64,000 nucleotides of DNA, taken from NCBI GenBank assembly GCA_022820825.1, contig JAJEEU010000101.1:38682-102681 (forward strand), read 5' to 3'. This document shows positions 10,066 through 56,354 of this stretch, in pieces. Under the pieces are notes generated by a model. The model was not told where the DNA came from. It saw only the letters and a program-made list of their open reading frames with translations, and did not search any database. The DNA comes from Vicinamibacteria bacterium. Its GTDB lineage: Bacteria > Acidobacteriota > Vicinamibacteria > Vicinamibacterales > UBA8438. Each line of letters begins with the position of its first letter. Within the stretch, counting starts at the first letter, position 1. The position numbers were made by a program, and so were the translations under genes.

Positions 10066-10188
10066 TACTTGGGGCTGCGCCCCAAACCCCCGGCGGCTGC
10101 TAGCGGGGACCCCGTTGCCCCACGCCGCTGCCGCCGGGCCGCGCCGTGCGCGGCCTGGGGACGGCCGCTGTCAGGCTTGCCGTCCCCC
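10066..10188 (+). repeat. family A structured intergenic repeat, copy A1
   Basis: TTACTTGGGGCTGCGCCCCAAACCCCCGGCGGCTGC...GGCCGCGCCGTGCGCGGCC...GGGGACGGC-13nt-GCCGTCCCC. It fills the etfB/etfA intergenic gap. The closest relative is A5. Confidence 0.85.
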
Positions 10189-10251
10189 TTTCTGAATACG
10201 TCGTGGTACACCTGCACACTCTCAAGCATGCTCACTCGCATTACTACCGTG

Positions 10252-11016
10252 TCAGCCCAGCACGCGGGCCTCTTCGCGCAGCGCGCGCACCAGCTCACCG
10301 GCGGCGGCGTCCGGCGCGCCCTCGAACAGTTTCGTCTGCTTGTCCTTCTCGGGTACGTACAGCCGCAGGATGCGCTGGCCCGCGGCGGCCGGTGCGTCCG
10401 GCGCAACCTTGCGCACCGGCTTGCGCCGCGCCGCCATGATGCCCTTGAGCGTCGCGTAGCGCAGTTGGTTGATGCCGCTCTGGATGGTCAGCAACGCGGG
10501 CAGCGGCAGCGTCACCCACTGGAACTGCCCGCCCTCGAGCTCCCGCTTGACGCGCACCTGGCCGTCGCCGACAACTATCTCCATGATGATGGTGGCGTGC
10601 GGCACGCCCAGCGCGCTCGCCAGCACGACTCCAGTCTGGCCGAACCCCTGGTCGTCGGACTGCAGCCCGGTCAGCACCAGGTCGCAGGACTCGGGCCGCA
10701 AGGCATCTCCCAGCGCCTGTCCCACGGCCGACGGCTCCGCCGCCCGCAGATCGTCGGACTCGACGTGGATGGCGCGATCGGCGCCGCGCGCCAGCCCCTC
10801 GCGCAGCACCTGCGCCACGCGCGCCGGGCCGGCGGAACAGACGATCACCTCGCCGCCGTGCCGCTCCTTGAGCCGCAGCCCCTCCTCGAGGGCGTACGCG
10901 TCCGGCTCGTTCATCTCGAAGCTGGCGTCGGCGTCGCGGACCCAACCGCCGTCCTGGTCGACGCGCAGCGGCCAGTCCCGCGCCACGACCTGCTTGACGC
11001 AGACCGCGATCTTCAT
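10252..11016 (-). CDS. etfB: electron transfer flavoprotein beta subunit
   Basis: MKIAVCVKQV...FEMNEPDAYALEEGLRLKE... is a typical EtfB sequence (254 aa). The ATG at 11014-11016 forms an ATGA overlap with the fabF stop. The 647-aa track ORF is a read-through artefact. Confidence 0.9.
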   Translation of the reverse strand: MKIAVCVKQVVARDWPLRVDQDGGWVRDADASFEMNEPDAYALEEGLRLKERHGGEVIVCSAGPARVAQVLREGLARGADRAIHVESDDLRAAEPSAVGQALGDALRPESCDLVLTGLQSDDQGFGQTGVVLASALGVPHATIIMEIVVGDGQVRVKRELEGGQFQWVTLPLPALLTIQSGINQLRYATLKGIMAARRKPVRKVAPDAPAAAGQRILRLYVPEKDKQTKLFEGAPDAAAGELVRALREEARVLG

Positions 11017-12278
11017 CGGGCGGCCCCGGCGTCCGCCGCGTCGTAGCGCCTGAAGAGCAGACTGGCGTTGGTGCCGCCGAAGCCGAACGAGTTGGACAGG
11101 GCGTAGGTGACGTCGGCGGCGCGCTTGCAGTTCGGAACGTAGTCCAGATCGCAGTCGGGATCGGGGTTTTCCAGGTTGATCGTGGGCGGCAGCATCTGCT
11201 TGCGGACCGCGAGCGCGGTGATGCCCGCCTCCAGGCCGCCCGACGCACCGAGCAGATGTCCGGTCATCGACTTGGTCGACGAGATGGCTAGGGAACGCGC
11301 GTGCTCGCCGAAGCACTTCTTGATAGCCAGCGTCTCGATCTTGTCGTTGTAGGTGGTCGACGTCCCGTGCGCGTTGATGTAGTCCACCATCGACGGCTCC
11401 ACGCCCGCCTCGTCGAGCGCGGCCTGCATGACCCGCAACGCGCCGTCCCCGTCCTCTGCCGGCGCCGTCATGTGGTGGGCGTCGGCGGACATGCCGTAGC
11501 CGACCAGCTCGGCGTAAGCGGGCGCTCCGCGCGCGCGGGCATGCTCCAGCTCTTCCAGCACGAGCACACCGGAACCCTCGCCGACAACGAACCCGTCGCG
11601 GTCCTTGTCGAACGGCCGGCTGGCCCGCTGCGGCTCGTCGTTGCGCGTGGACAGGGCGCGCATGGCCGCGAAGCCGCCGACGCCCATCGGCGTGATGGAA
11701 GCCTCCGACCCGCCCGCAATCATCACGTCGGCGGTGCCGCGGCGCACCATCTCGCCGGCGTCCCCGATGGCGTGCGCCGAGGCCGAGCAGGCGGTGCAGG
11801 TGGCGGAGTTCGGCCCGCGGGCCCCGAAGCGGATGGACACCTGCCCGGCCGCCAGATTGATGATGGCCGAGGGGATGAAGAAGGGCGATATCTTGCGCGG
11901 ACCACCCTTGAGCAACGCGCGGTGCTCGCGCTCGATGGTGGTGAAGCCGCCAATGCCCGAGGCGATGAACACGCCGGCCCGCGGCCCCAGCGGCCGCTCC
12001 AGATCCATGCCGGCATCCTGCAACGCGAAGGTCGACGCCGCCATCGCGTACTGGATGAACACGTCCATCTTCCGGACGTCCTTCCGGCTGATGAACTCGA
12101 GCGGATCGAAGCCGCGGACCTCGCCCGCAATGCGGGAGGCGAATCCGTCGGGATCGAAGTGCGTTATGGGCCCGATTCCGCTCCGCCCGGCGCACAGGGC
12201 GTCCCAGGTCGGCCCGGTGCCGATCCCCAGCGGCGACACCAGCCCCACACCCGTGACGACTACCCGTCGGCGCGACAT
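11013..12278 (-). CDS. fabF: 3-oxoacyl-ACP synthase II
   Basis: 421 aa. VVVTGVGLVSPLG..., the active-site region ATCTACSASAHAIG, and HGTSTTYND/GHLLGASG motifs are present. Confidence 0.95.
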   Translation of the reverse strand: MSRRRVVVTGVGLVSPLGIGTGPTWDALCAGRSGIGPITHFDPDGFASRIAGEVRGFDPLEFISRKDVRKMDVFIQYAMAASTFALQDAGMDLERPLGPRAGVFIASGIGGFTTIEREHRALLKGGPRKISPFFIPSAIINLAAGQVSIRFGARGPNSATCTACSASAHAIGDAGEMVRRGTADVMIAGGSEASITPMGVGGFAAMRALSTRNDEPQRASRPFDKDRDGFVVGEGSGVLVLEELEHARARGAPAYAELVGYGMSADAHHMTAPAEDGDGALRVMQAALDEAGVEPSMVDYINAHGTSTTYNDKIETLAIKKCFGEHARSLAISSTKSMTGHLLGASGGLEAGITALAVRKQMLPPTINLENPDPDCDLDYVPNCKRAADVTYALSNSFGFGGTNASLLFRRYDAADAGAAR

Positions 12279-12312
12279 CGTCTATGTCTATCCGTCCGGC
12301 AATCCGGAGCGG

Positions 12313-12555
12313 CTACTGCTTCCCCTTGGCATGCGACTCGATGTACTCGACCGCATCCTTGACCCGCGTTATCTTCTCGGCGTCCTCGTCGGGAATCTCG
12401 AGTCCGAACTCCTCCTCGAACACCATGAGCAACTCGACCTCGTCAAGGGAATCGGCGCCCAGGTCGTCCACGAAAGACGCGTCTGGAGTGACCTCTTCCT
12501 CGTCCACGCCCAACTGCTCCACGATGATGCCCTTGACTTTGTCCGCTACGGCCAT
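12313..12555 (-). CDS. acpP: acyl carrier protein
   Basis: 80 aa with the [13 protein letters not shown] phosphopantetheine-attachment motif. Confidence 0.95.
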
Positions 12556-12565
12556 TCAATGCCTC

Positions 12566-13306
12566 CTACATGTACATCCCACCGTTAACGCCGATTACCT
12601 GGCCAGTAATATACGACGCTTCCTCTGATGCAAGATAGCAGACGGCGGCGGCGACATCCTCCGGTTGGCCGAGGCGCCCCGCCGGGATCCGCGCGGTCAG
12701 CGCTTCGCGGGCCGCGTCGCCGATGGCCGCCGTCATGTCGGTTTCGATGAATCCCGGCGCCACCACGTTCACCGTGATGCCGCGCGCCGCGACCTCCTGC
12801 GCCAGCGCCTTGCTGAAACCGATCAGGCCCGCTTTCGACGCGGCGTAGTTCGCCTGTCCGGCATTGCCCGACTGCCCCACGACCGAGCCCACGTTGACTA
12901 CCCGGCCCCACCGCTGCCGCAGCATCGGCCGCAGCACGGCCTGCGTGCAGGAGTACGCCGCGGTCAGGTTGGTGGCGATGACCGCGTCCCACTCCTCGGG
13001 CTTCATGCGCATCAACAGTTGATCGCGGGCGATGCCGGCGTTGTTCACCAGGATGTCGATCCGTCCGAACCTGTCGAGTGCTGCACGCACCGCCGCCTGC
13101 AGCTCGCCGGCGCTGGTCACGTCCGCGCTCAATGCCTCGGCGCGTCCTCCGGCCGCCGCGATTTCGGCCGCAACGCCCCCGGCGTGATCCCCGCGGGCGC
13201 AGGCGGCCACGGCCGCGCCGGACGCGGCCAAGCGCACCGCAACCGCGCGCCCGATGCCCCGCGAGGCCCCGGTGACGAACGCCACCCGATCGCGTAAATC
13301 GGTCAT
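12566..13306 (-). CDS. fabG: 3-oxoacyl-ACP reductase
   Basis: 246 aa SDR with TGASRGIGRA, NNAG and YAASKAG motifs, in the fab operon position. Confidence 0.92.
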   Translation of the reverse strand: MTDLRDRVAFVTGASRGIGRAVAVRLAASGAAVAACARGDHAGGVAAEIAAAGGRAEALSADVTSAGELQAAVRAALDRFGRIDILVNNAGIARDQLLMRMKPEEWDAVIATNLTAAYSCTQAVLRPMLRQRWGRVVNVGSVVGQSGNAGQANYAASKAGLIGFSKALAQEVAARGITVNVVAPGFIETDMTAAIGDAAREALTARIPAGRLGQPEDVAAAVCYLASEEASYITGQVIGVNGGMYM

Positions 13307-13309
13307 GGG

Positions 13310-14251
13310 CTATCCCGCCGGCTGCTCCAGGAGTCTCGCCTCGAATGCGGCGACGCCTTCGGGATCGCCGACGCTCACGGCGTCGAAGCGCCGATCGATC
13401 TTGCGGATCAGGCCGCTCAGCACGGCGCCCGGACCGACCTCGACATACAGTTGCACTCCGGACGCCGCCAGGCGCCGGACCACCGCCTCCCAGCGTACAG
13501 GCGCGCTCACCTGTGCGACCAGCGCGTCTATCGCCGACGCCGCGTCGCGCTTCGGTTCCGCGTCCACGTTGGCGACGACAGGAACGTCCGGGTCGGATAC
13601 CACCAGCGAGCGCAGCTCCGGTTCGAGCCTCTTCTGTGCGGGCTGCATCAGCGCACAGTGGAACGGCGCGCTTACCGGCAGCGGCAGCACCCGCCGGGCG
13701 CCCAGCTCCCTGGCGCGCGCACCGGCCCGCGTCACCGCCGCGCGCGCGCCGGCGATTACCACCTGGCCGGGCGCGTTGAGGTTCGCGGCGCTGACGACCT
13801 CCCCTTCGGCCGCATCCGCGCAGGCCCGCGCCACCGCTTCCGCGTCCAGACCCAGGACCGCGGCCATGGCGCCGTCGCCGACCGGCACCGCCTCCTGCAT
13901 GTAGCGGCCCCGGCGGCGCACGGTGCGCAGCGCATCGGCGAACGAGAGCGTGCCGGCCGCGACATGCGCCGAATACTCGCCGAGGCTGTGGCCTGCGAGC
14001 ATTGCCGGCCGTGCACCGCGTGATGCAAGCAACCGGCACACGGCAACGCTGACCGCCAACACCGCCGGCTGCGTGTTCGCGGTCAGCGTCAGCGCGTCGG
14101 CCGGGCCCTCGAAGCAGAGGCGGCTCAACGGCTCGCCGAGCGCGTCGTCCGCCTCCTCGAACGTTGCGCGGCAGACGGGATACTGCGCCGCGAGCGCCTT
14201 GCCCATCCCTACCTGCTGCGACCCCTGGCCCGGAAACACGAACGCGATCAC
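13310..14251 (-). CDS. fabD: malonyl-CoA:ACP transacylase
   Basis: FVFPGQGSQQVGMG and GHSLGEYSA motifs are present. The start was re-set to the GTG at 14249-14251, a GTGA overlap with the plsX stop; the track ORF extends upstream over plsX. Confidence 0.88.
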   Translation of the reverse strand: MIAFVFPGQGSQQVGMGKALAAQYPVCRATFEEADDALGEPLSRLCFEGPADALTLTANTQPAVLAVSVAVCRLLASRGARPAMLAGHSLGEYSAHVAAGTLSFADALRTVRRRGRYMQEAVPVGDGAMAAVLGLDAEAVARACADAAEGEVVSAANLNAPGQVVIAGARAAVTRAGARARELGARRVLPLPVSAPFHCALMQPAQKRLEPELRSLVVSDPDVPVVANVDAEPKRDAASAIDALVAQVSAPVRWEAVVRRLAASGVQLYVEVGPGAVLSGLIRKIDRRFDAVSVGDPEGVAAFEARLLEQPAG

Positions 14252-15282
14252 GATCCGGCGCCCTTTCGCTCCACGACGCGCAGCCCACTCGAAACGGAGG
14301 CGATCTCGCGGGCCACCCGCTCCACGAAGCGCTGGCTCGCGTAGCGGTACGCGAGCACGACGGCGTTGCGCACCGCCTTGGCCGAGGAATGCCCGTGCCC
14401 CACGATGCACAGTCCCGCAACGCCCAGCAGCGGCGCACCGCCCACCTCGGAGTAGTCCACCCGGCGCTGAAACCGCCGAAACGCCCGGCTCGACAGCAGG
14501 TACCCGAACCGCGTCGTGAACGTCCGCTTGAGCTCCTCGCGCAGCAACGCCTCGACCATCTCGACGAGCCCCTCGCTGACCTTGAGCGCAACGTTGCCGG
14601 TGAAGCCGTCGCAGACGATGACGTCGGCCAGACCCGTGAACAGGTCGCGCGCCTCGACGTTGCCGATGAATCCCAGGTCGGAAGCCTGCAGGCGGCGGTG
14701 GGCGTCGCGGGTCAGCTCGTTGCCCTTCGTCGCTTCCTCGCCGATTGACAGCAGCCCGACCGACGGCTCGGACTTGTCGAGCAGCAGCCGCGCGTACACG
14801 CGCCCCATGGCGGCGAACTGCACCAGGTGCTGTGGCCGGCAGGCCACGTTGGCGCCGGCATCGAGCAGAACCGCGGTGCCACGGAGCGTCGGGAAGGCAG
14901 TGGCGAGCGCCGGCCGGTGAACGCCGGGCAACAGACCGAAAGCGGCATGCGCCGCGAGCAGCGTCGCGCCGGTATTGCCCGCGCTGAAGAAGGCCTCCGC
15001 CTCGCCGCGCGCCACGACCTCGGCCGCCTGCCGCACCGAGGACCTCGGCTTGCGCCGCAAGACCTCGGCCGGCGCCTCGTCCATGCCGACGACATCCTCG
15101 GCTTCGACAAGGCGAATGTCCAACCGCGACGCGTCGCCGTGGCGCGCCAGCTCAGCTTCCATCGCGGGCCGGCTGCCGACCAGCGTCAGACCGAAATCGA
15201 ACCGCCGGGCGGCCACCAACGCGCCGTCGATGATGTTGCGGGGCGCAAAATCCCCGCCCGCCGTGTCGATGGCGATGTGCAT
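14248..15282 (-). CDS. plsX: phosphate acyltransferase PlsX
   Basis: MHIAIDTAGGDFAP... is a canonical PlsX N-terminus, with the ATG at 15280-15282. The gene follows rpmF as in most bacteria. Confidence 0.9.
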   Translation of the reverse strand: MHIAIDTAGGDFAPRNIIDGALVAARRFDFGLTLVGSRPAMEAELARHGDASRLDIRLVEAEDVVGMDEAPAEVLRRKPRSSVRQAAEVVARGEAEAFFSAGNTGATLLAAHAAFGLLPGVHRPALATAFPTLRGTAVLLDAGANVACRPQHLVQFAAMGRVYARLLLDKSEPSVGLLSIGEEATKGNELTRDAHRRLQASDLGFIGNVEARDLFTGLADVIVCDGFTGNVALKVSEGLVEMVEALLREELKRTFTTRFGYLLSSRAFRRFQRRVDYSEVGGAPLLGVAGLCIVGHGHSSAKAVRNAVVLAYRYASQRFVERVAREIASVSSGLRVVERKGAGS

Positions 15283-15311
15283 GCTGGCTGTGCACCGGGC
15301 GCGCCCCGGCG

Positions 15312-15494: not shown

Positions 15495-15517
15495 GTCGTC
15501 GAGTCCTCCGGGATGCG

Positions 15518-16054
15518 CTAGTGACGCCGCCCGCCGACCAGCGCTTCGAGCGCGGCGAGACGCGGGTCGCGCCACGCCGTCTCGCAGTTGCAGGCGTGTT
15601 CGTTCAGGTTCGTGCCGCACACCGGGCAGAGCCCGCGGCAGGCATCCCGGCACAGCGGCTTCATGGGCAGCGCCAACCGGCACTGTTCGTGCACCAGTTG
15701 CAGCAGGTCGATCCGGAAGTCGCGATAGAAGGCAATCGAGAGATCCTCTTCCGCGATCTCGCTGTCGGCGGCGCCGCGATTCTCGCTGTCGGGCAGGTAC
15801 AGCAGATCGATCATGAGTGTCTCGGGCGTCTCGAACCGCTCCAGGCACCGGCTGCACGACAGCGCCAGCGTGGTATGGACATGCCCCGAGATCCGGCACT
15901 TTTCGCCATCCTTGCGGACCCGCAGGGCGAGCGTGACGTTATCCGCGACGGCATAGTCGTCGCTGCGGCCGGCGGCAAAGGTCGCCGCCGGATGCGTCTG
16001 GTCGACTCGATCCTCAGGCCCGCGCATCTCGCGCAGATCCAATACCAATGGCAT
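15518..16054 (-). CDS. yceD: YceD/DUF177 family protein
   Basis: 178 aa with a C-terminal Cys cluster (CRDACRGLCPVCGTNLNEHACNC). It lies immediately upstream of rpmF, the conserved yceD-rpmF pairing. Confidence 0.8.
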   Translation of the reverse strand: MPLVLDLREMRGPEDRVDQTHPAATFAAGRSDDYAVADNVTLALRVRKDGEKCRISGHVHTTLALSCSRCLERFETPETLMIDLLYLPDSENRGAADSEIAEEDLSIAFYRDFRIDLLQLVHEQCRLALPMKPLCRDACRGLCPVCGTNLNEHACNCETAWRDPRLAALEALVGGRRH

Positions 16055-16058
16055 CGTT

Positions 16059-16204
16059 TAGATGGGGCTGCGCGGCATCATCAACCTTGGGGCTGCGCCC
16101 CAAACCCCCGCCGGCCACTCGCGGGGACCCCTTCGCCCCACTCCGTGGCCGGCGGGCCGCGCCTTGCGCGGCCTGGGGACGGCTGCGTTACCGTTCGCCT
16201 CCCC
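16059..16204 (+). repeat. family A structured intergenic repeat, copy A2 (with duplicated 5' half-hairpin)
   Basis: The core at 16087-16204 is identical to A3 over the first ~77 nt. It is preceded by TAGATGGGGCTGCGC (16059-16073), a variant 5' end also seen in A4. It fills the dgt/yceD gap. Confidence 0.85.
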
Positions 16205-18301: not shown

Positions 18302-18378
18302 TGGTCGGGATGACTGGATTTGAACCAGCGACCCCCTGACCCCCAGTCAGGTGCGCTACCAGACTGCGCCACATCCCG
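18302..18378 (-). tRNA. tRNA-Pro (anticodon GGG), CCA encoded
   Basis: Hand-folded cloverleaf: acceptor CGGGATG/CATCCCG, D stem GCGC/GCGC, anticodon stem CCTGA/TCAGG with loop CTGGGGG (GGG, G37), T arm GCTGG-TTCAAAT-CCAGT, 3' ACCA. Confidence 0.9.
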
Positions 18379-40193: not shown

Positions 40194-40215
40194 TACGGCG
40201 AGTTTAGCAGCATTG

Positions 40216-40340
40216 TTACTTGGGGCTGCGCCCCAAACCCCCGCCGGCCACTCGCGGGGACCCCTTCGCCCCACTCCGTGGCCGGCGGGCCGCGCCGTGC
40301 GCGGCCTGGGCGCCGACATGTGAGGCGCACGTCGGCGCCC
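40216..40340 (+). repeat. family A structured intergenic repeat, copy A3
   Basis: It matches the A2 core through hairpin 3. Terminal hairpin 4 is replaced by the unrelated GGGCGCCGAC-13nt-GTCGGCGCCC. It fills the tsaC/hflX gap. Confidence 0.85.
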
Positions 40341-41030: not shown

Positions 41031-41198
41031 GGTGTCAACGTCCGCGGATCGCACCAGAACGACGAAGAAGCCGCGCAGGCCGCGCGCCCCGCTGCCGCGG
41101 CAACGGGGCGGACCGCATGAGGACAAGACGAGGCGGCCGTTCCGGCAGCGCAAGCACAGGCGGCCGGTCGACCGCGAAGCCCCGGAATCGGACTCCTA

Positions 41199-41358
41199 GC
41201 AGTCCGTGGTGAAACCCCGCGTCGCACCGAGAGCGGCGAGGCGCGCGGCTGACAAGGCGCGAAGAGCGAGCATATTCGAAGATATGTGAGCGATGAGCAA
41301 CACAGTCAGGCGTGATGCATCGGCGCTCGAATGCAGCGGGGCTTTTGCCACGGGCTGC
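41199..41358 (+). mobile_element. family B hairpin element (MITE-like or structured RNA), copy B1, 160 bp, TA-flanked
   Basis: It has imperfect ~30-nt terminal inverted repeats, GCAGTCCGTGGTGAAACCCCGCGTCGCA ... TGCAGCGGGGCTTTTGCCACGGGCTGC. TA dinucleotides flank it at 41197-98 and 41359-60. It ends 2 nt from the glpX stop. Confidence 0.6.
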
Positions 41359-41360
41359 TA

Positions 41361-42344
41361 CTAGAAGCGCAGCCCCCGCCGCCGCGCCTGCGCCTTGACG
41401 TGAATCGTGTCGATGAACTGCACGCGGTGCGGGTTCGTCTGCATCACCACGGAGCTAGTGCGGCACCCTTCGCCGAAGAACCGCACACCCTTCATCAACG
41501 CTCCCTCGGTGACGCCTGTCGCCGCGAACGTAATGTTCTCGCCCGAAGCCAGGTCCTCCGCCCGGTAGACCCGGGACGGATCGTCGATGCCCATGGATTC
41601 GGCGCGCGCCCGTTTTTCCGGCGTGTCCAGCACCAGGCGGCCGAATATCTCGCCGCCGAGGCAGCGCATCGCCGCGGCCGCAATCACGCCTTCCGGTGCG
41701 CCGCCGCTGCCCATGACCGCGTGCACGCCGCTGCCGACCACCGCCGCACCGATGGCCGCGGTCAGGTCGCCGTCCGTGATGAGCCGAATCCGCGCGCCGG
41801 CGTCCCGGATCTCGGCGATCAGCCGCTCGTGCCGCTTGCGGTCGAGCACCACGATCACGAGATCCGACACCTCGCGGTCGAGACAGCGCGCAATCTGGTG
41901 CAGGTTGTGGGCTACGGGGGCATCGAGATCGACGGAGCGCTTCGACTGCGCGCCGACGACGAGTTTCTCCATGTAGACGTCGGGCGCGTGCAGCAACCCG
42001 CCCCGCTCCGATGCGGCCAGCACGGCTATGGCCCGCGGCGCGCCGGTGGCGCACAGGTTCGTGCCTTCCAGCGGATCGACTGCAATGTCGATCTCCGGCA
42101 GTCCGTTTTCGCCGTTCGCCCCGCGGCCGACCCGCTCGCCGATGTACAGCATCGGCGCCTTGTCGCGCTCGCCTTCTCCGATGACCACGCGGCCGTCTAT
42201 GGGCACGCTGTCGAGCCGCGCGCGCATCGCCTCCACCGCCACCTGATCGGACCGGTGGCGGTCGCCCTGCCCCATCGTATGGGCGCAGGCTATCGCGGCC
42301 TGCTCGACGACATCGAGGAATGCGTGTGAAAGTTCCGCCTCCAT
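41361..42344 (-). CDS. glpX: fructose-1,6-bisphosphatase class II
   Basis: 327 aa with full-length GlpX-like sequence ([30 protein letters not shown]). The TAG stop is followed in frame by a second TAG supplied by the B1 flank. Confidence 0.92.
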
Positions 42345-45922: not shown

Positions 45923-46984
45923 ATGCGTATCGTCGCAGCGATGTCGGGCGGCGTCGATTCGTCCGTCGCCGCGGCGCTCCTCGCCGAGGCGGGCCACGAG
46001 GTCGTCGGGCTTTCGATGCAGCTCTACGACCAGCGCGGGGATGAGACGCGCTTCGGTAGCTGCTGCACCCTCGACGACCTGCACGACGCGCGCCGCGTGG
46101 CGGCGGTGCTGGACATACCCCACTACATCATGAACTTCGAGCGGCAGTTCGACGACCACGTGGTCTCGAACTTCGTGCGCGACTACATGGCCGCCCGCAC
46201 GCCGATTCCGTGCGTCCGCTGCAACGGCGACCTGAAGTTCGCCACGCTGCTCGACCGCGCCCGGGGGCTGGATGCGCCCGTGGTGGCGACAGGCCACTAC
46301 GCCCGTGTCGAGCAGGCGGCCGACGGCACGCATCTGCTCAAGCGCGGCGTCGACGCCGACAAGGATCAGTCGTATTTCCTGTTCACGCTGACCCAGCCGC
46401 AACTCGCCGGCGCGCGCTTTCCCCTCGGGGCGCTGCGCAAGCCGGAGGTCCGCGCCTACGCGGCGGCGCGCGCCCTGCCGGTCGCGGACAAGCCCGACAG
46501 CCATGAGATTTGCTTCGTGCCCGACGGCGACTACGCGGCCTTCGTCGAGCGGCGCACGCCGCAGGCGGTTTCGCCGGGCCGCATCGTCGACGGCGCCGGG
46601 CGCACGCTTGGACACCACGACGGCGTCCACCGGTTCACGGTCGGACAACGCAAGGGACTCGGCCTGTCCAGCCACCTGCCGCTGTACGTCACGGCGCTCG
46701 ACGCCGCGTCCGGACGCGTAACCGTCGGCCCGCGCCAGGCGCTGGAGCGGTCGACCCTTTCCGCGTCCGCGGTGAACTGGATTGCCGGCTCGCCGCCCGC
46801 CGCACCCATCCGCGCGACCGCCCGGATCAGGTACCGGCACCGGGAGGCCGCCGCATGCATTACCCCGTTGGGCGACGACGCGGCGCGGGTGGAATTCGAC
46901 GAGCCGCAGGCTGCAATTGCTCCCGGTCAGGCCGTCGTCTTCTACCGGGGGGACACCGTGCTGGGCGGCGGCTGGATCGACTAG
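45923..46984 (+). CDS. mnmA: tRNA 2-thiouridine(34) synthase
   Basis: [17 protein letters not shown] (PP-loop) and full-length MnmA-like sequence. Stop TAG at 46982-46984 overlaps the trxB stop on the other strand. Confidence 0.93.
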
Positions 46985-47973
46985 CCGGGGGTTTGGGGCG
47001 CAGCCCCATCTAACGATGCCGCCTCTGTCGCGTCCTCGGCTGCGGCGTCGGTTTCCGGCAGGCTCTCGAGATAGCGCTCGGCGTCGATCGCCGCCATGCA
47101 GCCGGACCCGGCCGCGGTGATCGCCTGCCGGTACACGTGATCCTGGACGTCTCCCGCCGCGAACACGCCGGGGACGCTCGTGCGCGCACCGCCGCGCGGA
47201 ACGATGTAGCCGTTGGCGTCCAGCTCCATCTGTCCCTTGAACAGGCCGGTGTTGGGTGTGTGGCCGATCGCCACGAACACCCCCTCCACGGCCAGCGTCC
47301 TGAGCGCGCCCGTCTTCAGGTTCCGCAGCGCAACGCCGGTGACGACGCCCTTCTCCGTGTCGGTTATGTCATCGACGACGGCGTCCCACTCGAACGAGAT
47401 CTTCGGGTTCCTGAACGCCTTGTCCTGCATGATCTTCGACGCGCGCAGCGTGTCGCGGCGGTGCACCACGGTGACGTGCGAGGCAAACTTGGTGAGGAAC
47501 GTAGCCTCTTCCATGGCGGAATCGCCGCCGCCGACGACGGCAATCGGCTTGCCGCGGAAAAAATAGCCGTCGCAGGTCGCGCAAGTCGACACGCCGTGCC
47601 CCATCAGGGTGCGCTCGGACGGCAGCCCCAGCAGCCTTGCCGACGCACCGGTGGCGATGATGAGGGTGCGGCCGCGATACGCCGTGTCGCTCGTGGTCAC
47701 GACGAACGGCGGCCGGCCGAGCTTCACCCCGGTGACGTCGCCGGTCACGAACTCCGTGCCGAACCGCTCCGCCTGGGCCCGCATCTCGGCCATCAGATCG
47801 GGACCCATGATGCCGTCGCGAAACCCCGGATAGTTCTCGACGGCAGTCGTCAGCATCAGTTGGCCGCCCGACTCCAGGCCCTCGATCAACAGCGGGTTCA
47901 GATTGGCGCGGGCGGCGTACAGCGCGGCGGTCAGTCCCGCCGGGCCGGAGCCGATGATGATGACCTGGCGCAT
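46981..47973 (-). CDS. trxB: thioredoxin-disulfide reductase
   Basis: [23 protein letters not shown], the redox-active CATCDG, and [10 protein letters not shown] are present. ATG at 47971-47973; the GTG at 48015 used by the track lies inside element B2. Confidence 0.93.
46985..47012 (-). repeat. family A repeat fragment A4 (5' hairpin only)
   Basis: Read on the minus strand, TAGATGGGGCTGCGCCCCAAACCCCCGG carries hairpin 1 plus the C-run. It shares the TAGATGGGGC variant 5' end with A2 and lies inside the last 9 codons of trxB. Confidence 0.6.
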
Positions 47974-47986
47974 CGCGGGCGGGTTA

Positions 47987-48146
47987 GCAGTCCGTGGCGA
48001 AACCCCGCGTCGCACCGAGAGCGGCGAGGCGCGCGGCTGGCAAGGCGCGAGAAGCGAGCATATTCAACCATATGTGAGCGACGAGCAACACAGTCAGGCG
48101 TGATGCATCGTCGCTCGAATGCAGCGGGGCCTTCGCCACGGGCTGC
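47987..48146 (+). mobile_element. family B hairpin element, copy B2, 160 bp, TA-flanked
   Basis: About 93% identical to B1 by hand alignment. TA dinucleotides sit at 47985-86 and 47147+1000 equivalent 48147-48. Its last C plus the flanking TA form the TAG stop of the S11 peptidase gene. Its other end is 13 nt from the trxB ATG. Confidence 0.6.
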
Positions 48147-49072
48147 TAATCCGCGGGACTGATCGCGGGCGGGTCGAGCGCGGCGCCGTGCTCGGACACC
48201 CAGTCGGCCAGCCTGCGGACCTCCCCGAAACGGCGCGCGTTCGACCCTGCGCCCAGGACCACAATGGACAGCGGGTCGCGGTCCGGCAGCTTCACGACCG
48301 TGGCCAGACAGTAGCCGGAGGCATTGATGTAGCCGGTCTTGCCGCCGTGGATGAGGAGCCGGCCGCGCAGCAGATCGTTGGTGCTGCGCACCCTCAGGCG
48401 GCGGCGGCTGGTCTCCAGGTTGTGCGACCGCTTGCGCATGATCGTCGAAATGACGGGCCGCCGGGTCGCCTCCGCGATCAACCGCGATACGTCGTAGGCC
48501 GTCGACACGTTGCCGCTGTCGAGTCCGGACGGCTCGGTGAACGCGGTGCCGCGAAGTCCCATCGCGGCTGCCGTGGCATTCATCTGCTCGACGAACCCGC
48601 GGGTGCCCCACGGCGACACCCGCGCCAGGAGGCGGGCGGCGGTGTTGTCCGAGGCCACCAGGGCCAGGTGCAGGACGTCGTACAGCGCTACCCGCTCTCC
48701 CCGCCGCAAATAGGTGGTCGACGCGCGGCGCACGTCGCGGCGGGACACCACGACGTCGGCATCCAGGTCGGGCTGCTGCTCCAGGAATACGAGCGCCGTC
48801 ATCACCTTCGTGATGCTGGCGATCGGGCGAGGGCTGAGGCTGTTCGACTCCCAGAGGATCTCGTGGCTGGCCGGGTCGTAGACAACGGCCGCCTCCGCGC
48901 GGAGGCGCGGCGCAGGCAACCCGGCGGTGTCCAGCGTGCGCGGGGGATCATGCGCGGGGTCGGGGCCGACAGCGGGTGGCGGGACGGCCGCGGCCCCGCC
49001 GGCGTGCGGGGCAAGGCCGACCGTGCCCGACCACAGCAGCAGGATTCCACAGATCGCGGCGAATCGCGCCAT
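48146..49072 (-). CDS. D-alanyl-D-alanine carboxypeptidase/endopeptidase (peptidase S11, class C PBP)
   Basis: A signal peptide is present, with SITK (SxxK), SDN (SxN) and KTG motifs in the correct order. ATG at 49070-49072; the track ORF is over-extended. Confidence 0.82.
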   Translation of the reverse strand: MARFAAICGILLLWSGTVGLAPHAGGAAAVPPPAVGPDPAHDPPRTLDTAGLPAPRLRAEAAVVYDPASHEILWESNSLSPRPIASITKVMTALVFLEQQPDLDADVVVSRRDVRRASTTYLRRGERVALYDVLHLALVASDNTAARLLARVSPWGTRGFVEQMNATAAAMGLRGTAFTEPSGLDSGNVSTAYDVSRLIAEATRRPVISTIMRKRSHNLETSRRRLRVRSTNDLLRGRLLIHGGKTGYINASGYCLATVVKLPDRDPLSIVVLGAGSNARRFGEVRRLADWVSEHGAALDPPAISPAD

Positions 49073-49074
49073 CG

Positions 49075-50457: not shown

Positions 50458-50468
50458 GATAGCTCTGC

Positions 50469-51502: not shown

Positions 51503-51537
51503 GGCGGGACCAATGCTGAATGCTACTATTCCGGCCC

Positions 51538-51984
51538 ATGAGCGTGAAACACGTGGACGTGAGGCAGGCGCACGCGCTGCAGTCGGACGAGGGCTACACC
51601 TACGTCGACGTGCGGTCGACACCGGAATACGACCAGGGACATCCGGCGGGCGCCCACAACGTGCCGCTGCTGCACCTGGACCCGGCGACGCGGCAGATGG
51701 TACCCAACCCCGATTTCCTGGCCGTCATGCAGGCGAGCCATGCGCCGGACGCGAAGCTGCTGATCGGCTGCCAGATGGGCGGCCGCTCGGCGCGCGCCGC
51801 GGATATCCTGGCTGCGGCCGGTTACACCGACGTCTCCAACGTCGCCGGCGGCTTCGGCGGCGCCCGCAACCGCATGACGGGCGAGGTGATGAACGAGGGC
51901 TGGGCCGACGCCGGGCTGCCGGTGGAAGCCTCCGCGACGCCGGGCGGCAGCTACGCCGAGCTGCGCCAGCGCGCCGACAAGTAG
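51538..51984 (+). CDS. rhodanese-domain sulfurtransferase
   Basis: YVDVRSTPEYDQGHPAGAHNVP and the active-site loop CQMGGRSARAA are present. ATG at 51538 is preceded by TACTAT 8 nt upstream; ATG at 51520 is an alternative start. Confidence 0.85.
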   Translation: MSVKHVDVRQAHALQSDEGYTYVDVRSTPEYDQGHPAGAHNVPLLHLDPATRQMVPNPDFLAVMQASHAPDAKLLIGCQMGGRSARAADILAAAGYTDVSNVAGGFGGARNRMTGEVMNEGWADAGLPVEASATPGGSYAELRQRADK

Positions 51985-51989
51985 CCGGG

Positions 51990-53306
51990 CTATCCGCGAA
52001 CCGCCGCTTCCAGCCCCGCCGCCAGGGCCAGCAGCTCGACGGTCCGGCCGCGGCGGCCCACGAGCTGGATGCCGGCGGGCAGCCCCCCGGCCGTGCCGCA
52101 CGGCAGCGACACGGCCGGATGCCCCGTCACGTCGAACAACTGGGTAAGCCGCAGCATGAGCGGACGGACCGTTTCGGCGTCGGCGCCGAGGCGCGGCGGC
52201 ACGATGGGCAGGGTCGGCAACAGCAACGCCGCGCGGCCTTCGAGCGCCGCGTCCACCTCGACCGCCAGCCGCCGCCGCGCCTGCTGCGCCCGAACGTAAT
52301 CCACGGCCGGAATCTCGCGCCCCATCTCGAGGCGCTGCCGCACCCGCGCGCTGAAGTCGTCCGGACGGGTGTCGAGCGCCTCCCGGTGGCACGCCGCCGC
52401 TTCCGGCAACTGCGTTCCGCGGTATACCGCGGGCGTCTCGCCCGCGTGCGGAATCTCGACGTCCTCCACGCCACAACCGTCCGCCTCGAGCCGCGCGACG
52501 CAGTCCGCGAACGCGGTGTGCACGGCCGGCTCGACCATCTCCAGCAGGTAGCCGCGCGGCACGCCCAGCCGCGCGCCGCGCACCGCCGCCGGCAGGACCT
52601 CGTCGCCCCGCCCGCCGGTCAGCACATGATGCAACGTGGCGGCATCGCGCACGGAGCGGGCCAGCGGACCCGCGTGGTCGAGCGACGGCGCGAGCGGCAC
52701 GACCCCCTCCAGGCTCACCTCGCCATGGGTGGGCTTGAGTCCCACCAGACCGCACGCGGACGCGGGAATGCGGATGGAGCCGCCCGTGTCCGTACCGACC
52801 GAGGCGACCGCCATGCCGGCCGCTACCGAGGCCGCCGAACCGCCGCTCGAGCCGCCCGGGGTGCGGTCCGGCGCGTGCGGGTTGCGCGTCGGACCGTACG
52901 CCGACTCCTCGCCGGTGGTCCCCAGCCCGAGCTCGTGCAGGTTGCACTTGCCCACGAAGACGGCGCCGGCCCCGCGCAGGCGCGCGACCAGGGGCGAGTC
53001 GGCCTCCGCGCGGTGGTCCCGCCGGACGCGCGACGCTGCCGTGGTCGGCCCGCCGGCCACATCGATCAGGTCCTTCAACGAGATCGGCATGCCGTGCAGC
53101 GGGCCGCGGTCGCGGCCCGCCGCCAGCTCCGCGTCCGCGGTGCGGGCCTGCCGGCGTGCGTCCTCGGCCAGCAGCGTGATGAACGCGTTGAGCGCCGGGT
53201 CGCACTCCTCGACTGCCGCCAGACACTCCTCCAGGAGCTGCACCGCCGTGAGGCGCCCGCGCCGCAGCGCGGTTCCGAGCGTGGCGATGGTGGCGTCCGC
53301 CAGCAT
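51990..53306 (-). CDS. amidase (amidase-signature family, GatA-like)
   Basis: GMPISLKD, GGSSGGSAASVAAG and GTDTGGSIRIPA are amidase-signature motifs. ATG at 53304-53306. Confidence 0.88.
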   Translation of the reverse strand: MLADATIATLGTALRRGRLTAVQLLEECLAAVEECDPALNAFITLLAEDARRQARTADAELAAGRDRGPLHGMPISLKDLIDVAGGPTTAASRVRRDHRAEADSPLVARLRGAGAVFVGKCNLHELGLGTTGEESAYGPTRNPHAPDRTPGGSSGGSAASVAAGMAVASVGTDTGGSIRIPASACGLVGLKPTHGEVSLEGVVPLAPSLDHAGPLARSVRDAATLHHVLTGGRGDEVLPAAVRGARLGVPRGYLLEMVEPAVHTAFADCVARLEADGCGVEDVEIPHAGETPAVYRGTQLPEAAACHREALDTRPDDFSARVRQRLEMGREIPAVDYVRAQQARRRLAVEVDAALEGRAALLLPTLPIVPPRLGADAETVRPLMLRLTQLFDVTGHPAVSLPCGTAGGLPAGIQLVGRRGRTVELLALAAGLEAAVRG

Positions 53307-53317
53307 GGACCGTGCCG

Positions 53318-54481
53318 TCAGTACAGCAGGTAGCGGCGCCTGATCGGCTCGAACGCCGCGACTGCCGGCTCCCAACCGGCGGCGATGTCGGCTGCAGCGC
53401 GGCCCGCGTCGAGGGAGCGTCGCAGCGCTTCCGAACCGGAGAGGATGTCCATGGGCATGCGCTCCTGCTCGTATTCGTAGGGAGGCTCGCGCCAGGCGAA
53501 GGCATCCGGCGCGGCCGCCCGGCAGGCGCGGATCACCGCCGTGGCGGTCAGCACCGGCCGGAACGCGCGGCGGTCCGTGACGTGGATCTGGCAGCCGCCG
53601 CATGTCCTGCCGGCATGCTTCTGGAACGTCGGCTCGAAACCTGCCGGCCGGAAGTGCACGCCCGGCAGGTCCAGCGCGTTCAGCGCGCCGGCCAGCGCCT
53701 CGGGATCGATCCCCGGCGCGCCCGCCAGCTCGAAGGGACGCGTCGTGCCGCGGCCCTCGGACAGCGTCGTCCCCTCCAGCAGCACCATGCCGGGATAGAC
53801 GAGCGCGCTGTCGAGCGTGGGGAGGTTGGGCGACGGCATGACCCACGGCGCGCATGCCTCGTCCTGGTAGTGCGCCCGCGTCCAGCCGCGCAACTCGCAT
53901 ACCTCCAGCTCGGCGCCGATGCCGAACTCCTCGTTGAAGAGCCGCGCCAGCTCCCCGATCGTCATCCCGTGCCGCAGCGGAATCGGGAACTGTCCCACGA
54001 ACGAGGCGAACGCGGGGTCGAGCACGGGCCCCTCGACCGTCTCGCCGCCGATCGGGTTCGGACGGTCGCAGACGACCACGCGTACGCCGTGGCTGCGCGC
54101 CGCGCGCAGGCAGTTGGCCATCGTATAGACATACGTGTAGACCCGCGTGCCGACGTCCTGGAGGTCGATGACGAGCAGGTCGAGGCCGTCGAGCATGGCC
54201 GCCGTCGGTTCCCGCGTGTCGCTGTACAGCGAGTAGAGCGGCACGCCGAGCCGCGGATGCCGCGCGTGCGGCGTCTCCACCATGTTGTCCTGGACGTCGG
54301 CATGGAACCCGTGCTGCGGCCCGAACAGCGCCGCCAGGGTGCCCCCCGGCAACCCGGCGATACGGTCCGCCACATGCCTGAAGGCGCGGTCGACCGACGC
54401 GGGATTGGAGACCAGGCCGATCCGCGCCCCGTCGAGCAGTCCGGATTCGAGCAGGCGTTCGGAACCGAGGGTTACGGCCAC
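53318..54481 (-). CDS. DUF1343 family protein (NamZ-like exo-beta-N-acetylmuramidase family)
   Basis: IGLVSNPASV...LFGPQHGF...LYSLYSDTREP...LVIDLQDVGTRVYTY...DRPNPIGG matches the DUF1343 pattern. GTG at 54479-54481 lies 2 nt after the dam stop, giving 387 aa. Confidence 0.85.
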   Translation of the reverse strand: MAVTLGSERLLESGLLDGARIGLVSNPASVDRAFRHVADRIAGLPGGTLAALFGPQHGFHADVQDNMVETPHARHPRLGVPLYSLYSDTREPTAAMLDGLDLLVIDLQDVGTRVYTYVYTMANCLRAARSHGVRVVVCDRPNPIGGETVEGPVLDPAFASFVGQFPIPLRHGMTIGELARLFNEEFGIGAELEVCELRGWTRAHYQDEACAPWVMPSPNLPTLDSALVYPGMVLLEGTTLSEGRGTTRPFELAGAPGIDPEALAGALNALDLPGVHFRPAGFEPTFQKHAGRTCGGCQIHVTDRRAFRPVLTATAVIRACRAAAPDAFAWREPPYEYEQERMPMDILSGSEALRRSLDAGRAAADIAAGWEPAVAAFEPIRRRYLLY

Positions 54482-54483
54482 GG

Positions 54484-55407
54484 TCAGGCTGCCCGCTCCG
54501 GCATGTTCGTAATCGCGTACTCCATGATCGCGCCCCGGCGCGCCGCTGCAGAGTTGATGGCCCTGCGGGCCGCGACCTTGTGGGCGCGGATGCCGACGCG
54601 CAGGGCCTCCCGATTCTCGTCGTACAACTCCGTGACTTCCGGCGCCGTCGAATTGCTGAGCAAGACGTGACACCCGCGCTCCGCAAGCTCGACGACGACC
54701 TGCTGGAGCTGCCGCTGATCGGCGCTGGTGAAGCCGCCCGCGGTGTACGACGTGAAGCGGGCCGTCGCGCTGAGAGGGGCGTACGGCGGATCGAAGTAGA
54801 TGAAGTCGCCGCGGCCGGCGGAATGCAGCACCTGCCGGTACGGCTGGTAGTCGATCTCCACCGCCAGGTCCGACAACGTCGCCGCCACCCTGCCGAGGTT
54901 GTCCGCGTCGCATATGCGCGGATTCACGTAACGCCCCCGCGGAACGTTGAACATGCCCCTGGAATTCAACCTGAACAACCCGTTGTAGCCGGTGCGGTTC
55001 AGGTAGATGAGCATCGCGGCGAGGTCCGGTGTGTACGCATCGGCCCTGCGCGGGATGCAACTGCGCGCGGGGTTGAACTCTTCGTCGCGGACGCGGTAGT
55101 AGTGCTCGGCGGGCGCCGCGTTGTAGCCGGACTCGAGCGCGCGCAGGCGCTCCATCACGGCCTCCGGCGCGTCGCGCACCTGCAGCCAGCACCCGATCAG
55201 GTCGGCGTTGACATCCGTCAGGCGGACCCTGCGCCCGCGGAGCCGGCCGGCGGCGGCCAGGTCGAAGAAGACAGCGCCGCTGCCCAGGAACGGCTCGTGG
55301 TAGGCGCCGAACCTCTCCGGGTAGAAGCGGCGCAACTGCGGCAGGAGCTGGCGCTTGCCGCCGGCCCACTTCAGGAACGGGCGCGCCGCGTTACGCGCTG
55401 TCGTCAT
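54484..55407 (-). CDS. dam: DNA adenine methyltransferase (D12 class, Dam-like), no adjacent restriction gene
   Basis: PFLKWAGGKRQLLPQL, EPFLGSGAVFFD (SAM motif) and the catalytic YFDPPY are present. ATG at 55405-55407 (or 55420-55422) overlaps the upstream ORF by 17 nt. Confidence 0.88.
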   Translation of the reverse strand: MTTARNAARPFLKWAGGKRQLLPQLRRFYPERFGAYHEPFLGSGAVFFDLAAAGRLRGRRVRLTDVNADLIGCWLQVRDAPEAVMERLRALESGYNAAPAEHYYRVRDEEFNPARSCIPRRADAYTPDLAAMLIYLNRTGYNGLFRLNSRGMFNVPRGRYVNPRICDADNLGRVAATLSDLAVEIDYQPYRQVLHSAGRGDFIYFDPPYAPLSATARFTSYTAGGFTSADQRQLQQVVVELAERGCHVLLSNSTAPEVTELYDENREALRVGIRAHKVAARRAINSAAARRGAIMEYAITNMPERAA

Positions 55408-56176
55408 CGGCCGGGTCTGCATCCCCGGGCGGCGGATCGTCCTCGTCGCCTCCCGCATCGCTCCCGGCGGGAGGCCCGTCGAGCAGGGCTCTGATGGCGT
55501 CGGATTCCGCCTCGAACCGCTCGATGCCGTGAACGGCGTCCTCCATGGTTTCCCAGCCGTCCGGATTGAGCGCCCCGGCGCGCGCCAGCGCCGCATCGCG
55601 CGTACCGGCATCGACGTCCCGCTCGGCGATACCGGCCTGTACCTCCGTGTACAACGCCCTGAGCCGTGCGAGCATCTCCTCGCCCATCAGGGCCACGACG
55701 GGATGCTCCCACGGCTCGTCCCGGCCGCGGCCGACATCCGCCTCCGGCTCGGCCTCGGCGAACGCGGTTGCGTCCGTCTCCGGGGGGGCATGGGTCTCCG
55801 CTTCCGCGGCAGCGGGCGCCTCCGGGTCCCTTGCGGTGGGAACCGCAGGCTCGGCGGAGGCCGCTTCCCTCTCCGGCGCCGAAGCTGCCGGCGGCTTCTT
55901 CCTGGCCGCCCGCTGCCGGCCGCGGCGGTTCTCCGGCGGGCGCGGCGCGGGCCGCTCCTTGAGCATCTCGCCCCAGTCGAACTCCAGGCCCGGATTGCTC
56001 GCCTCGATGGCTCGAACCGCCTCGTCGTCGAGCGGGTGCCGGCCCACCCGGGCGCCGGGCGGCGTGCGGAACCAGTACAGCAGCCGCGGCTCCGGGCCGC
56101 GCTTGCCGCGGAAGGTGTGCAGGACGTAGGTGTTTTCGTAGCCGCGCTTGTCGCGCGAATACCTCAGATACGGCAT
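55391..56176 (-). CDS. hypothetical protein (basic N-domain, acidic Pro/Ala/Glu-rich centre and tail)
   Basis: ATG at 56174-56176 (MPYLRYSRDKRGYENTYVLHTFRGKRG...). It is in frame to a TAA at 55391 that lies inside dam. I recognise no family. The track ORF's extra N-terminus is repeat A5. Confidence 0.6.
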   Translation of the reverse strand: MPYLRYSRDKRGYENTYVLHTFRGKRGPEPRLLYWFRTPPGARVGRHPLDDEAVRAIEASNPGLEFDWGEMLKERPAPRPPENRRGRQRAARKKPPAASAPEREAASAEPAVPTARDPEAPAAAEAETHAPPETDATAFAEAEPEADVGRGRDEPWEHPVVALMGEEMLARLRALYTEVQAGIAERDVDAGTRDAALARAGALNPDGWETMEDAVHGIERFEAESDAIRALLDGPPAGSDAGGDEDDPPPGDADPADDDSA

Positions 56177-56232
56177 CCGACTTGAAAGTATATGGGCGAG
56201 GCGGCGAAGTGGCGAAATGGTGAAGTACGGAA

Positions 56233-56354
56233 GGGGACGGCGAGCAGCGAGCGGCCGTCCCCAAGCCGCGCACAGCGCGGCCCGGCGGCAGCGGCGCGGG
56301 GCTATGGGGTCCCCGCTAGCAGCCGCCGGGGGTTTGGGGCGAAGCCCCAAGTAA
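56233..56354 (-). repeat. family A structured intergenic repeat, copy A5 (inverted orientation)
   Basis: Its reverse complement aligns with A1 along its whole length (about 90% by eye), including GGGGACGGC...GCCGTCCCC. It lies in the divergent region between the hypothetical gene and hemE. Confidence 0.85.

Follow-up and report, generated by a model that had tools for sequence, protein, structure and literature searches.

The described systems closest to the element reported here are the repetitive extragenic palindromes (REPs) and REPINs of Escherichia coli and Pseudomonas, which are linked to REP-associated tyrosine transposases (RAYTs) and consist of one 20-40-nt GC-rich palindrome present in high copy number outside genes, with covarying arms and genome-specific subfamilies. 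REPs are recognised by a GTAG or CGTC tag and usually form inverted head-to-head or tail-to-tail dimers, head-to-tail pairs being rare, and a distinct RAYT-like group, TIRYT, has been reported in Acidobacteria (Di Nocera et al. 2013, PMC3733652). The bacterial interspersed mosaic elements (BIMEs) of E. coli and the RIMEs of rhizobia are mosaic assemblies of intergenic motifs, the BOX elements of Streptococcus pneumoniae and the ERIC/IRU elements of enterobacteria are non-coding, modular or imperfectly palindromic repeats of about 100-150 nt, and miniature inverted-repeat transposable elements (MITEs; Correia/NEMIS, IS630-type) and the PATEs derived from IS200/IS605 are small, structured and non-autonomous. 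Here we describe Family A, a repeat with a 94-nt core of three hairpins, in a 64,000-nt window (70% G+C) from a Vicinamibacteria bacterium (Acidobacteriota; contig JAJEEU010000101.1, positions 38,682 to 102,681). Family A is new and previously undescribed, and joins the structured intergenic repeats of bacteria, a loosely defined class; it is specific to Vicinamibacterales, and it is probably a non-coding, non-autonomous, REP/BIME-like mobile mosaic repeat, that is, selfish DNA.

The window contained four full copies (A1, A2, A3 and A5), all of them intergenic as the original prediction had it, and two 5' fragments (Table 1). A 22-nt block of hairpin 1 and the adjoining spacer, GGGGCTGCGCCCCAAACCCCCG, was matched five times in the window at one mismatch or less and not once in 100 dinucleotide shuffles, while the hairpin-3 block was matched four times with none expected. 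A covariance model built from 86 copies and run unfiltered on the whole window scored the full copies at 91-107 bits and the fragment A4 at 26 bits, and added no further copy above the next match at 19.5 bits, so that the five predicted loci were all recovered in place and the original inventory was complete. Two of their ranges were redrawn: A2 is a full copy (16074-16204), but the range first given for it also held part of a separate 5' fragment, and A4 is indeed a fragment but a longer one, which includes a 13-nt leader and encodes the 11 C-terminal residues of TrxB, ending at the stop codon common to the convergent mnmA gene.

We scanned a species-representative genome collection with the 21-mer of hairpin 1 and spacer and obtained at least 106 loci from relatives and other genomes, labelled here L001, L054, L107, L110 and so on. 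About three quarters of the matches listed were metagenome-assembled genomes (MAGs) of Vicinamibacterales, whose loci held the whole element and not the 21-mer alone. The window was syntenic with four of the listed Vicinamibacterales loci at 82-91% identity, and its EtfA was at most 93% identical to any database protein. In 0.61 Mb of Vicinamibacterales loci, the covariance model found about 105 matches above 65 bits in at least 9 related genomes, whereas the 32 loci from other phyla gave no match above 40 bits. The presence of the element in at least nine genomes, with more than 100 copies in the sampled relatives, means that the copies are not assembly artefacts of one contig. At the Rfam gathering thresholds the sole match in the window was a single tRNA gene at 18305-18378 (-), and the best match of A1 in E-value mode was to an unrelated family (13 bits, E = 2.6), in line with the earlier remark that the element was not recognised as any named Rfam family. 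A blastn search of a plasmid collection gave no match, viral contigs gave 0 matches and JGI metagenome contigs gave 1. A full-text literature search for the hairpin sequence returned no paper, and published REP surveys leave Vicinamibacterales uncovered.

From 98 non-redundant stretches of hairpin 1 plus stem 2 listed from the sampled loci and the window, 86 distinct copies that also had hairpin 3 could be aligned over 94 columns with only occasional single-base gaps. The near-constant 94-nt core runs in the order leader, hairpin 1, spacer, stem 2 and hairpin 3. The leader is variable (6-13 nt), its information content climbing from about position -13, and its final six bases are mostly TTAGAT, CTAGAT or TTACTT. 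Hairpin 1 has a 7-bp stem, (T)T-GGGGC-TGC-GCCCC-A(A), and is followed by the spacer AAACCCCC. Stem 2, of about 48 nt, is bipartite, with an 11-bp outer helix, the segments TAG/TCG and an inner helix GCGGGG/CCCCGC that closes a 9-nt loop with three free bases at its centre; the motif GCGGGG(A)CCCC…GCCCC is invariant. Hairpin 3 has a 7-bp stem and the loop YGT. No convincing terminal inverted repeats (TIRs) were found in Family A, apart from a weak leader/tail similarity by eye.

The sequence 3' of hairpin 3 varies, with hairpin 4 in roughly half of the copies and other repeated modules in others, and the arm pairs of hairpin 4 are themselves unrelated (GGGGACGRC/GYCGTCCCC, GGGACCACC/GGTGGTCCC, GGAGTCTGC/GCAGACTCC and GGGCGCCGAC/GTCGGCGCCC). 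At the orthologous site upstream of hemE, the window copy has hairpin 4, L055 (a 90% identical genome) has none, and L059 has a nested pair with extra modules. The four-hairpin architecture originally proposed folds in the window copies, but hairpin 4 is an optional module, and some of the variants that had been read as free sequence with kept pairing are probably different modules rather than products of covariation.

Covariation in the core held across the 86 copies. Standard pairs occupied 91.6% of 2629 pair cells, compared with 33-52% when the 3' partners were slid by 1-3 columns. Double-sided changes occurred in 10 of 31 pairs (163 cells); six of these pairs belong to stem 2 and three to hairpin 3, the tenth being a T-A to C-G change of hairpin 1, and several pairs showed three pair types, such as G-C/C-G/A-T at columns 37-66. 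The covariation score was 0.163 as against 0.063±0.004 in shuffles, and none of 500 shuffles reached the observed value. The account of stem 2 given from the window, in which its two subfamilies differ by two compensatory pairs and a T-T, was correct base for base, and the orthologous hemE-site copies of the window and L055 are two double changes apart in stem 2. Near-constant core length, invariant loops and covarying stems together indicate that the element's persistence depends on its folded form.

All four hairpins were predicted on both strands of the copies (z = -3.4 to -6.3 relative to shuffles), the reverse-complement, G-rich strand being 4-8 kcal/mol more stable than the strand on which the repeat was first read. 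On that first strand, mismatches were 78 of the A·C type and 15 of the G·T type; the complementary strand therefore tolerates mismatches as wobble pairs and pairs better, which weakly suggests a strand-specific single-stranded form. The description of three copies as antisense to the surrounding operons depended on which strand was read, which is arbitrary; read as its reverse complement, the element is in sense to the genes and its fold is slightly better.

Comparisons of occupied and empty sites revealed insertion polymorphism. In the window, the etfB-etfA junction holds a 190-nt composite of A1 and an attached piece of a second repeat, P (described below), while in L107 (EtfA 93% identical) and L108 the site is empty and the two genes overlap by 4 nt (ATGA). 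The insertion replaced 14 nt of the ancestral junction, the ATGA translational overlap is gone, and the window etfB stop is a TGA from the reverse complement of the inserted P piece. EtfB is 5 residues shorter in the window, ending in …ARVLG instead of …ARVLGAREGG (window 10252-10330, L107 2440-2504). Between L109 and L110, whose flanks are 95-97% identical, L110 carries copies at both fabF-etfB and etfB-etfA, the latter with a deletion of 9 nt, and L109 carries none; its spacers are an unrelated 72-nt sequence with its own small hairpin at fabF-etfB and 16 nt at etfB-etfA. L110 has four matches in 6 kb (two full and two partial), and L001 is filled where L054 is empty. Three filled/empty comparisons showed no target-site duplication (TSD), no constant termini and small target deletions. 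At fabF-etfB of L110, the 118-nt copy exactly spans the distance from stop codon to ATG (L109 1645-1720, L110 1474-1593), and more distant relatives have no fabF-etfB spacer whatever. Structured inserts seem to be gained at hot spots formed by operon junctions.

The copies are also mosaic and genome-specific. Variants of stem 2 and hairpin 3 are mixed differently in each genome, the GGCAAGCGC variant being dominant in OZ253664.1 and GGCGTCCGC in CBDCCO01, and mean copy identity was 0.881 within genomes versus 0.846 between them. Left and right arms of different subfamilies are sometimes joined, mismatched, in chimeras; a 5' fragment directly before a full copy, the layout of A2, recurs in many loci; and L035 and L089 contain head-to-tail arrays that repeat every 95 nt. 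The opposite end is also found as fragments, for example in L001, and the neighbours lying within 400 nt of each other were head-to-tail in all 35 pairs.

These patterns bear on whether the copies could be structured DNA sites for a host chromosomal protein, serving supercoiling or nucleoid organisation and spreading as a by-product. The BIMEs of E. coli bind gyrase, integration host factor (IHF) and Pol I, and a function of this kind would be orientation-independent and would suit the invariant single-stranded or loop motifs (GCGGGG, CCCC and AAACCCCC), the high density of about one copy per 16 kb in the window, and the recurrence of the hairpin-1 21-mer in many phyla. We nevertheless regard it as very unlikely, in that copy content differs sharply between close relatives (the four matches of L110 have no counterpart in L107-L109), the subfamilies are genome-specific, no candidate protein was found, and the strand asymmetry in pairing would be unexpected for double-stranded sites.

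Relative to flanking genes, called roughly from the GC content of third codon positions (GC3), the 109 copies included 27 same/same, 24-34 opposite/opposite, 16 convergent and 9 divergent cases, a ratio of about 50:50 with no orientation bias. No U-tract terminator or sigma-70-like promoter was found within the copies; a function as terminator or promoter was set aside on this ground, as was the intrinsic-terminator reading, since no copy has a GC-rich hairpin followed by a U tract. A link with start codons was also considered, as 'CAT' abuts the 5' end of all window copies and about 60% of copies have it 4-12 nt upstream, and was ruled out: a credible divergent open reading frame (ORF) was present there in only 29 of 103 copies, the CAT belongs to a P-like leader (GGCATCG), and the ATG at 40213 is out of frame with hflX.

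The even orientation also counts against a host-useful, cis-acting RNA module, whose stem-loops would shield upstream mRNA from 3' exonucleases, set segmental stability or tune translation of the next gene, with the stop codon and ATG-like motif of the leader and the G-runs beside start codons contributing and RNA selection keeping the pairing. Three of the four window copies do lie within co-directional gene pairs, the following start codon being 0-20 nt away from the hairpin-1 end; the fold of the sense strand is the more stable and is favoured by the G·U asymmetry, loops are conserved while stems covary, and E. coli REPs are reported as 3'UTR regulators. Such a module seems unlikely all the same: orientation was nearly even in 109 copies, 25 of which lie between convergent or divergent genes, a convincing ORF start lay within 30 nt of only 29 of 103 copies, close relatives do without the element at the same junctions, and fragments, chimeras and tandem arrays would be unexpected for a tuned regulatory module.

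Still less can be said for independent small-RNA genes or a retroelement-derived repeat copied via RNA in the manner of short interspersed nuclear elements (SINEs), which we consider barely credible. The compact conserved structure covaries, and many partial copies share one end, so that they would be 3' fragments on the G-rich strand; this bias is however an ascertainment effect of fragment searches anchored on hairpin 1, and opposite-end fragments exist too (L001). The copies had no promoter- or terminator-like sites and no Rfam match, and no reverse transcriptase was seen near them. Of the four options left open by the original prediction, a REP-like, selfish element is thus favoured by site polymorphism, genome-specific subfamilies, arrays and mixed orientation, while the even orientation and the lack of promoter- or terminator-like sites speak against a small RNA read from one strand and against a signal dedicated to mRNA processing.

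The second repeat, P, is MITE-like: its 160 nt form a long imperfect hairpin that has TIRs GCAGCCYGTGGC…GCCACRGRCTGC and a central palindrome CACATAT-N6-ATATGCTC; it had no match in Rfam. In most copies it is bordered by TA on both sides, which is a signature of IS630/Tc1-type elements, and P may be classed as an IS630-like MITE. Both sua5/yrdC and trxB have an intact P copy immediately upstream, in sense orientation. P often contains Family A at a single fixed point, which reads …GCATC/CCG/CCTGAAC… when empty, and this nesting accounts for the 'type ii' tail and for some of the leader. No recognisable part of P was found within 130 nt upstream or 380 nt downstream of 79 of 105 Family A copies, and the recent L110 insertions have neither P TIRs nor a TA duplication; P is therefore a frequent host or vehicle and not the sole explanation of spread. 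About a quarter of the copies are tied to P and may have spread by riding inside it.

A stronger version would make Family A a passive cargo of P, moved by an IS630/Tc1-type DDE transposase, with the P-free copies as decayed composites. The fixed position of the nesting in many loci (P empty or P filled), the TIRs and flanking TA of P, the P remnants at A1, A3 and A5 and the resemblance of leaders such as GGCATCG to the left part of P would agree with it. It is highly improbable given the 79 of 105 copies without P, the L110 insertions and the A-only head-to-tail arrays with a 95-nt period in L035 and L089.

Outside Vicinamibacterales, the exact 21-mer of hairpin 1 and spacer, GGGGCTKCGCCCCAAACCCCC, was found with unrelated flanks in at least 8 other phyla (loci in Table 1). 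The groups listed were Chloroflexota, Streptomyces, Holophaga, Minicystis (Myxococcota), Bacteroidales, Clostridia/Oscillospiraceae, Verrucomicrobiota, Dehalococcoidia and Acetobacteraceae. At the G+C content of some of these genomes, about 45-52%, a rough chance estimate was well under one match per whole collection. On the 3' side the 21-mer is often followed by a different hairpin, or by a Shine-Dalgarno-like GGAGGTG and a start codon, and it is locally repeated in L044, L015 and L090. It also lies just downstream of stable-RNA genes, namely RNase P RNA (L032) and a tRNA cluster (L084). Hairpin 1 and spacer (TT-GGGGC-NNN-GCCCC-AA-ACCCCC) might be an ancient or horizontally travelling recognition signal, the mark of a third REP-like superfamily that lacks a tag and has a partner of its own, which would be an HUH enzyme or else a conserved host factor. 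Family A would then be the Vicinamibacterales elaboration of this signal, spreading head-to-tail by a mechanism different from that of REPINs; we hold this to be quite unlikely.

Set beside the known systems, Family A is most like the REP/REPIN and RAYT systems in being a high-copy, GC-rich and extragenic series of palindromes with covarying arms and genome-specific subfamilies, in its occasional capture into the ends of coding sequences and in its presence/absence differences between relatives. Around hairpin 1 it resembles the GTAG-1/2 REPs, with a short unpaired tag, two extra bases, a 5-7 bp stem, a 3-nt loop and a short tail. Unlike the GTAG or CGTC tag of REPs, positions -6 to -3 read Y-T-A-S in 101 distinct copies (A10 C49 G3 T39 at -6), giving a YTAG/YTAC tag in which G makes up only 3%. 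It further differs from REPs in that its neighbours are only head-to-tail, where inverted dimers predominate in REP families, and in that it is a fixed series of three different hairpins and not one palindrome. In the sampled DNA, no RAYT was found flanked by Family A copies. With BIMEs and RIMEs it shares the mosaic intergenic assembly of motifs, locus-variable modules and presumed co-transcription in operons; unlike BIMEs, which have alternating REP orientation, defined linker motifs and known protein partners, all its modules and neighbours are co-oriented, its core length is near-constant and it has no known protein partner. Like BOX and ERIC/IRU it has a variable number of modules, occupies transcribed intergenic sites in either orientation and encodes no transposase, but it has no sequence relation to them, belongs to another taxon and shows stronger loop conservation and explicit multi-helix covariation.

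Like MITEs and PATEs, Family A is a small, non-autonomous structured repeat nested in another repeat. Unlike MITEs it lacks convincing TIRs and a TSD and has heterogeneous ends, whereas P has TIRs and TA flanks; a classical MITE was rejected because neither TIR nor TSD appeared in the three filled/empty pairs. The ends of IS200/IS605 elements are subterminal hairpins without TSD. Family A similarly has hairpins near both ends and no TSD. The PATEs derived from IS200/IS605 insert 3' of a fixed 4-5-nt target and show a strand bias linked to replication; no such conserved target was seen on the 5' side of Family A, and the loci listed by the 21-mer scan were themselves visibly biased in strand. 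An IS91-like GTTC target and IS608-like TTAC/TCAA ends were considered and discarded, as 'TTCAACCGTT' after hairpin 4 is a conserved tail or part of P. An integron attC site, in which inverted core sites (RYYYAAC and GTTRRRY) flank an imperfect palindrome within arrays of cassettes, was also dismissed: the 5' GTTAGAT fits GTTRRRY but in the wrong position and orientation and with no partner site, and the flanking genes are housekeeping genes. A G-quadruplex or i-motif reading of the four G/C tracts was considered, but the strong hairpins would compete with it.

The selfish reading draws on several features together: the repeat is confined to one lineage and abundant there, its sites are polymorphic for insertion, its subfamilies are genome-specific, it occurs as chimeras, fragments and arrays and in either orientation to genes, and it is tolerated inside coding ends. 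We propose that Family A increases in number within genomes and inserts between genes, even at very tight operon junctions. Its arms would be kept complementary by recognition or propagation of the element as a folded single strand, of which the G-rich strand, with its better pairing, would be the one recognised. The likeliest agent would be a RAYT/TIRYT-type HUH tyrosine transposase or nuclease that the host encodes and that binds hairpins, and recombination and gene conversion among copies would probably produce the mosaics. After insertion the copies would be co-transcribed, their GC-rich stem-loops forming at most passive mRNA structures, and if insertion alters mRNA stability or uncouples translation at operon junctions, it would do so only passively.

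Several points weigh against this proposal. A tblastn search of about 0.9 Mb of loci, a sample covering about 5% of any one genome, for a Y1 transposase, with three queries (IS200, IS608 and E. coli RAYT), gave nothing at E < 0.1; the best match (E = 0.13, L046) fell in an ORF whose translation, by its look, resembles an NAD-dependent epimerase. Pfam searches of nine ORFs between oppositely oriented copies returned ordinary enzymes and nothing relevant. The REP hallmarks of tag and inverted pairing are absent, as set out above. The insertion ends are imprecise, with 9-14 nt of target replaced, no TSD and no fixed termini, and such junctions fit recombination better than a site-specific transposase. 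Subfamily inheritance inflates the covariation counts, so that independent events are overstated among copies that are kin by descent, the strand asymmetry comes mainly from two alignment columns, and the orientation test depends on crude GC3 gene calls. On sequence alone, a host function would also be admissible.

Several copies and remnants touch the ends of genes in the window. The 24-nt fragment before A2 overlaps the yceD ATG at 16054. The longest hflX ORF (483 aa; 40195-40319 (-)) starts at an ATG inside A3 and so includes 35 codons of repeat; this long frame is an artefact, and alignment logic and the conserved N-terminus (…ERAAVIGL…) suggest that the real start is a GTG near 40195. The trxB and mnmA stops overlap in the palindrome CTAG (46981-47020), and trxB probably begins at the ATG at 47973, 10 nt past repeat P, and not at the GTG at 48015 where the longest ORF starts (47971-48015). 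A5 fills the divergent region between hemE and a conserved small gene starting near 56165 (-), and the decayed P remnant beside it contains a sigma-70-like match, TCGCCA-17-TATACT. A gene for a D12-class N6-adenine DNA methyltransferase lies near hemE (window 54484-55611 (-), 56374-57399 (+)).

Table 1. Family A copies, fragments and P repeats in the window, with the loci of other phyla that carry the hairpin-1 21-mer.
Feature	Position	Strand	Details
A1 core, 94 nt	10063-10156	+	covariance model 98.1 bits
A1 leader	10063-10070	+	
A1 hairpin 1	10069-10085	+	followed by spacer AAACCCCC
A1 stem 2	10090-10137	+	
A1 hairpin 3	10138-10154	+	
A1 hairpin 4	10157-10187	+	GGGGACGGC...GCCGTCCCC; optional module
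P, truncated right half joined to A1	10189-10254	+	…CACACTCTCAAGCATGCTC…TGTCAGCC; P remnant
5' fragment directly before A2	16050-16073	+	GGCATCGTTTAGATGGGGCTGCGC; leader and first 10 nt of hairpin 1
A2 leader and core	16074-16174	+	covariance model 90.8 bits
A2 hairpin 1	16087-16103	+	
A2 stem 2	16108-16155	+	
A2 hairpin 3	16156-16172	+	
A2 hairpin 4	16175-16204	+	imperfect
A3 core	40214-40307	+	covariance model 96.1 bits
A3 hairpin 1	40220-40236	+	
A3 stem 2	40241-40288	+	
A3 hairpin 3	40289-40305	+	
A3 alternative hairpin 4	40308-40340	+	GGGCGCCGAC...GTCGGCGCCC
P copy	41196-41364	-	
A4, fragment	46984-47020	-	leader GGCATCGTTAGAT, hairpin 1, AAACCCCCGGC; covariance model 26 bits
P copy	47984-48149	-	
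P remnant beside A5	56170-56215	-	
A5 tail and decayed right half of P	56170-56232	-	…CCTCGCCCATATACTTTCAAG…; sigma-70-like match 56215-56187
A5 hairpin 4	56233-56262	-	missing from the orthologous L055 copy
A5 core	56263-56356	-	covariance model 106.6 bits; orthologous copies in L055, L059
A5 hairpin 3	56265-56281	-	
A5 stem 2	56282-56329	-	
A5 hairpin 1	56334-56350	-	
P copy, deleted	about 63885-63980	-	
Cross-phylum 21-mer loci, part 1	L007, L015, L023, L026-L028, L030, L032, L037-L039, L044, L045, L047, L049, L050		
Cross-phylum 21-mer loci, part 2	L060, L061, L066, L067, L072, L081, L083-L085, L088, L090-L092, L094, L100, L105		

Vicinamibacterales are abundant soil bacteria and, to our knowledge, almost unstudied genetically. 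For the annotation of their genomes, Family A and P matter in that repeats lengthen or shorten real genes (TrxB by 11 codons more, etfB by 5 codons fewer) and make long spurious ORFs such as the 483-aa 'HflX' frame, which inflate ORF calls; they also part translationally coupled genes. Family A is a ready strain-typing marker, and with its near-constant 94-nt core, its many compensatory variants and a presence that varies between genomes about 95% identical it makes hairpin covariation in selfish DNA open to study. The enzyme that mobilises elements of this sort in Acidobacteriota could be reached through it, and if the hairpin-1 signal shared across phyla were functional, it would widen the REP concept beyond the GTAG and CGTC tags.

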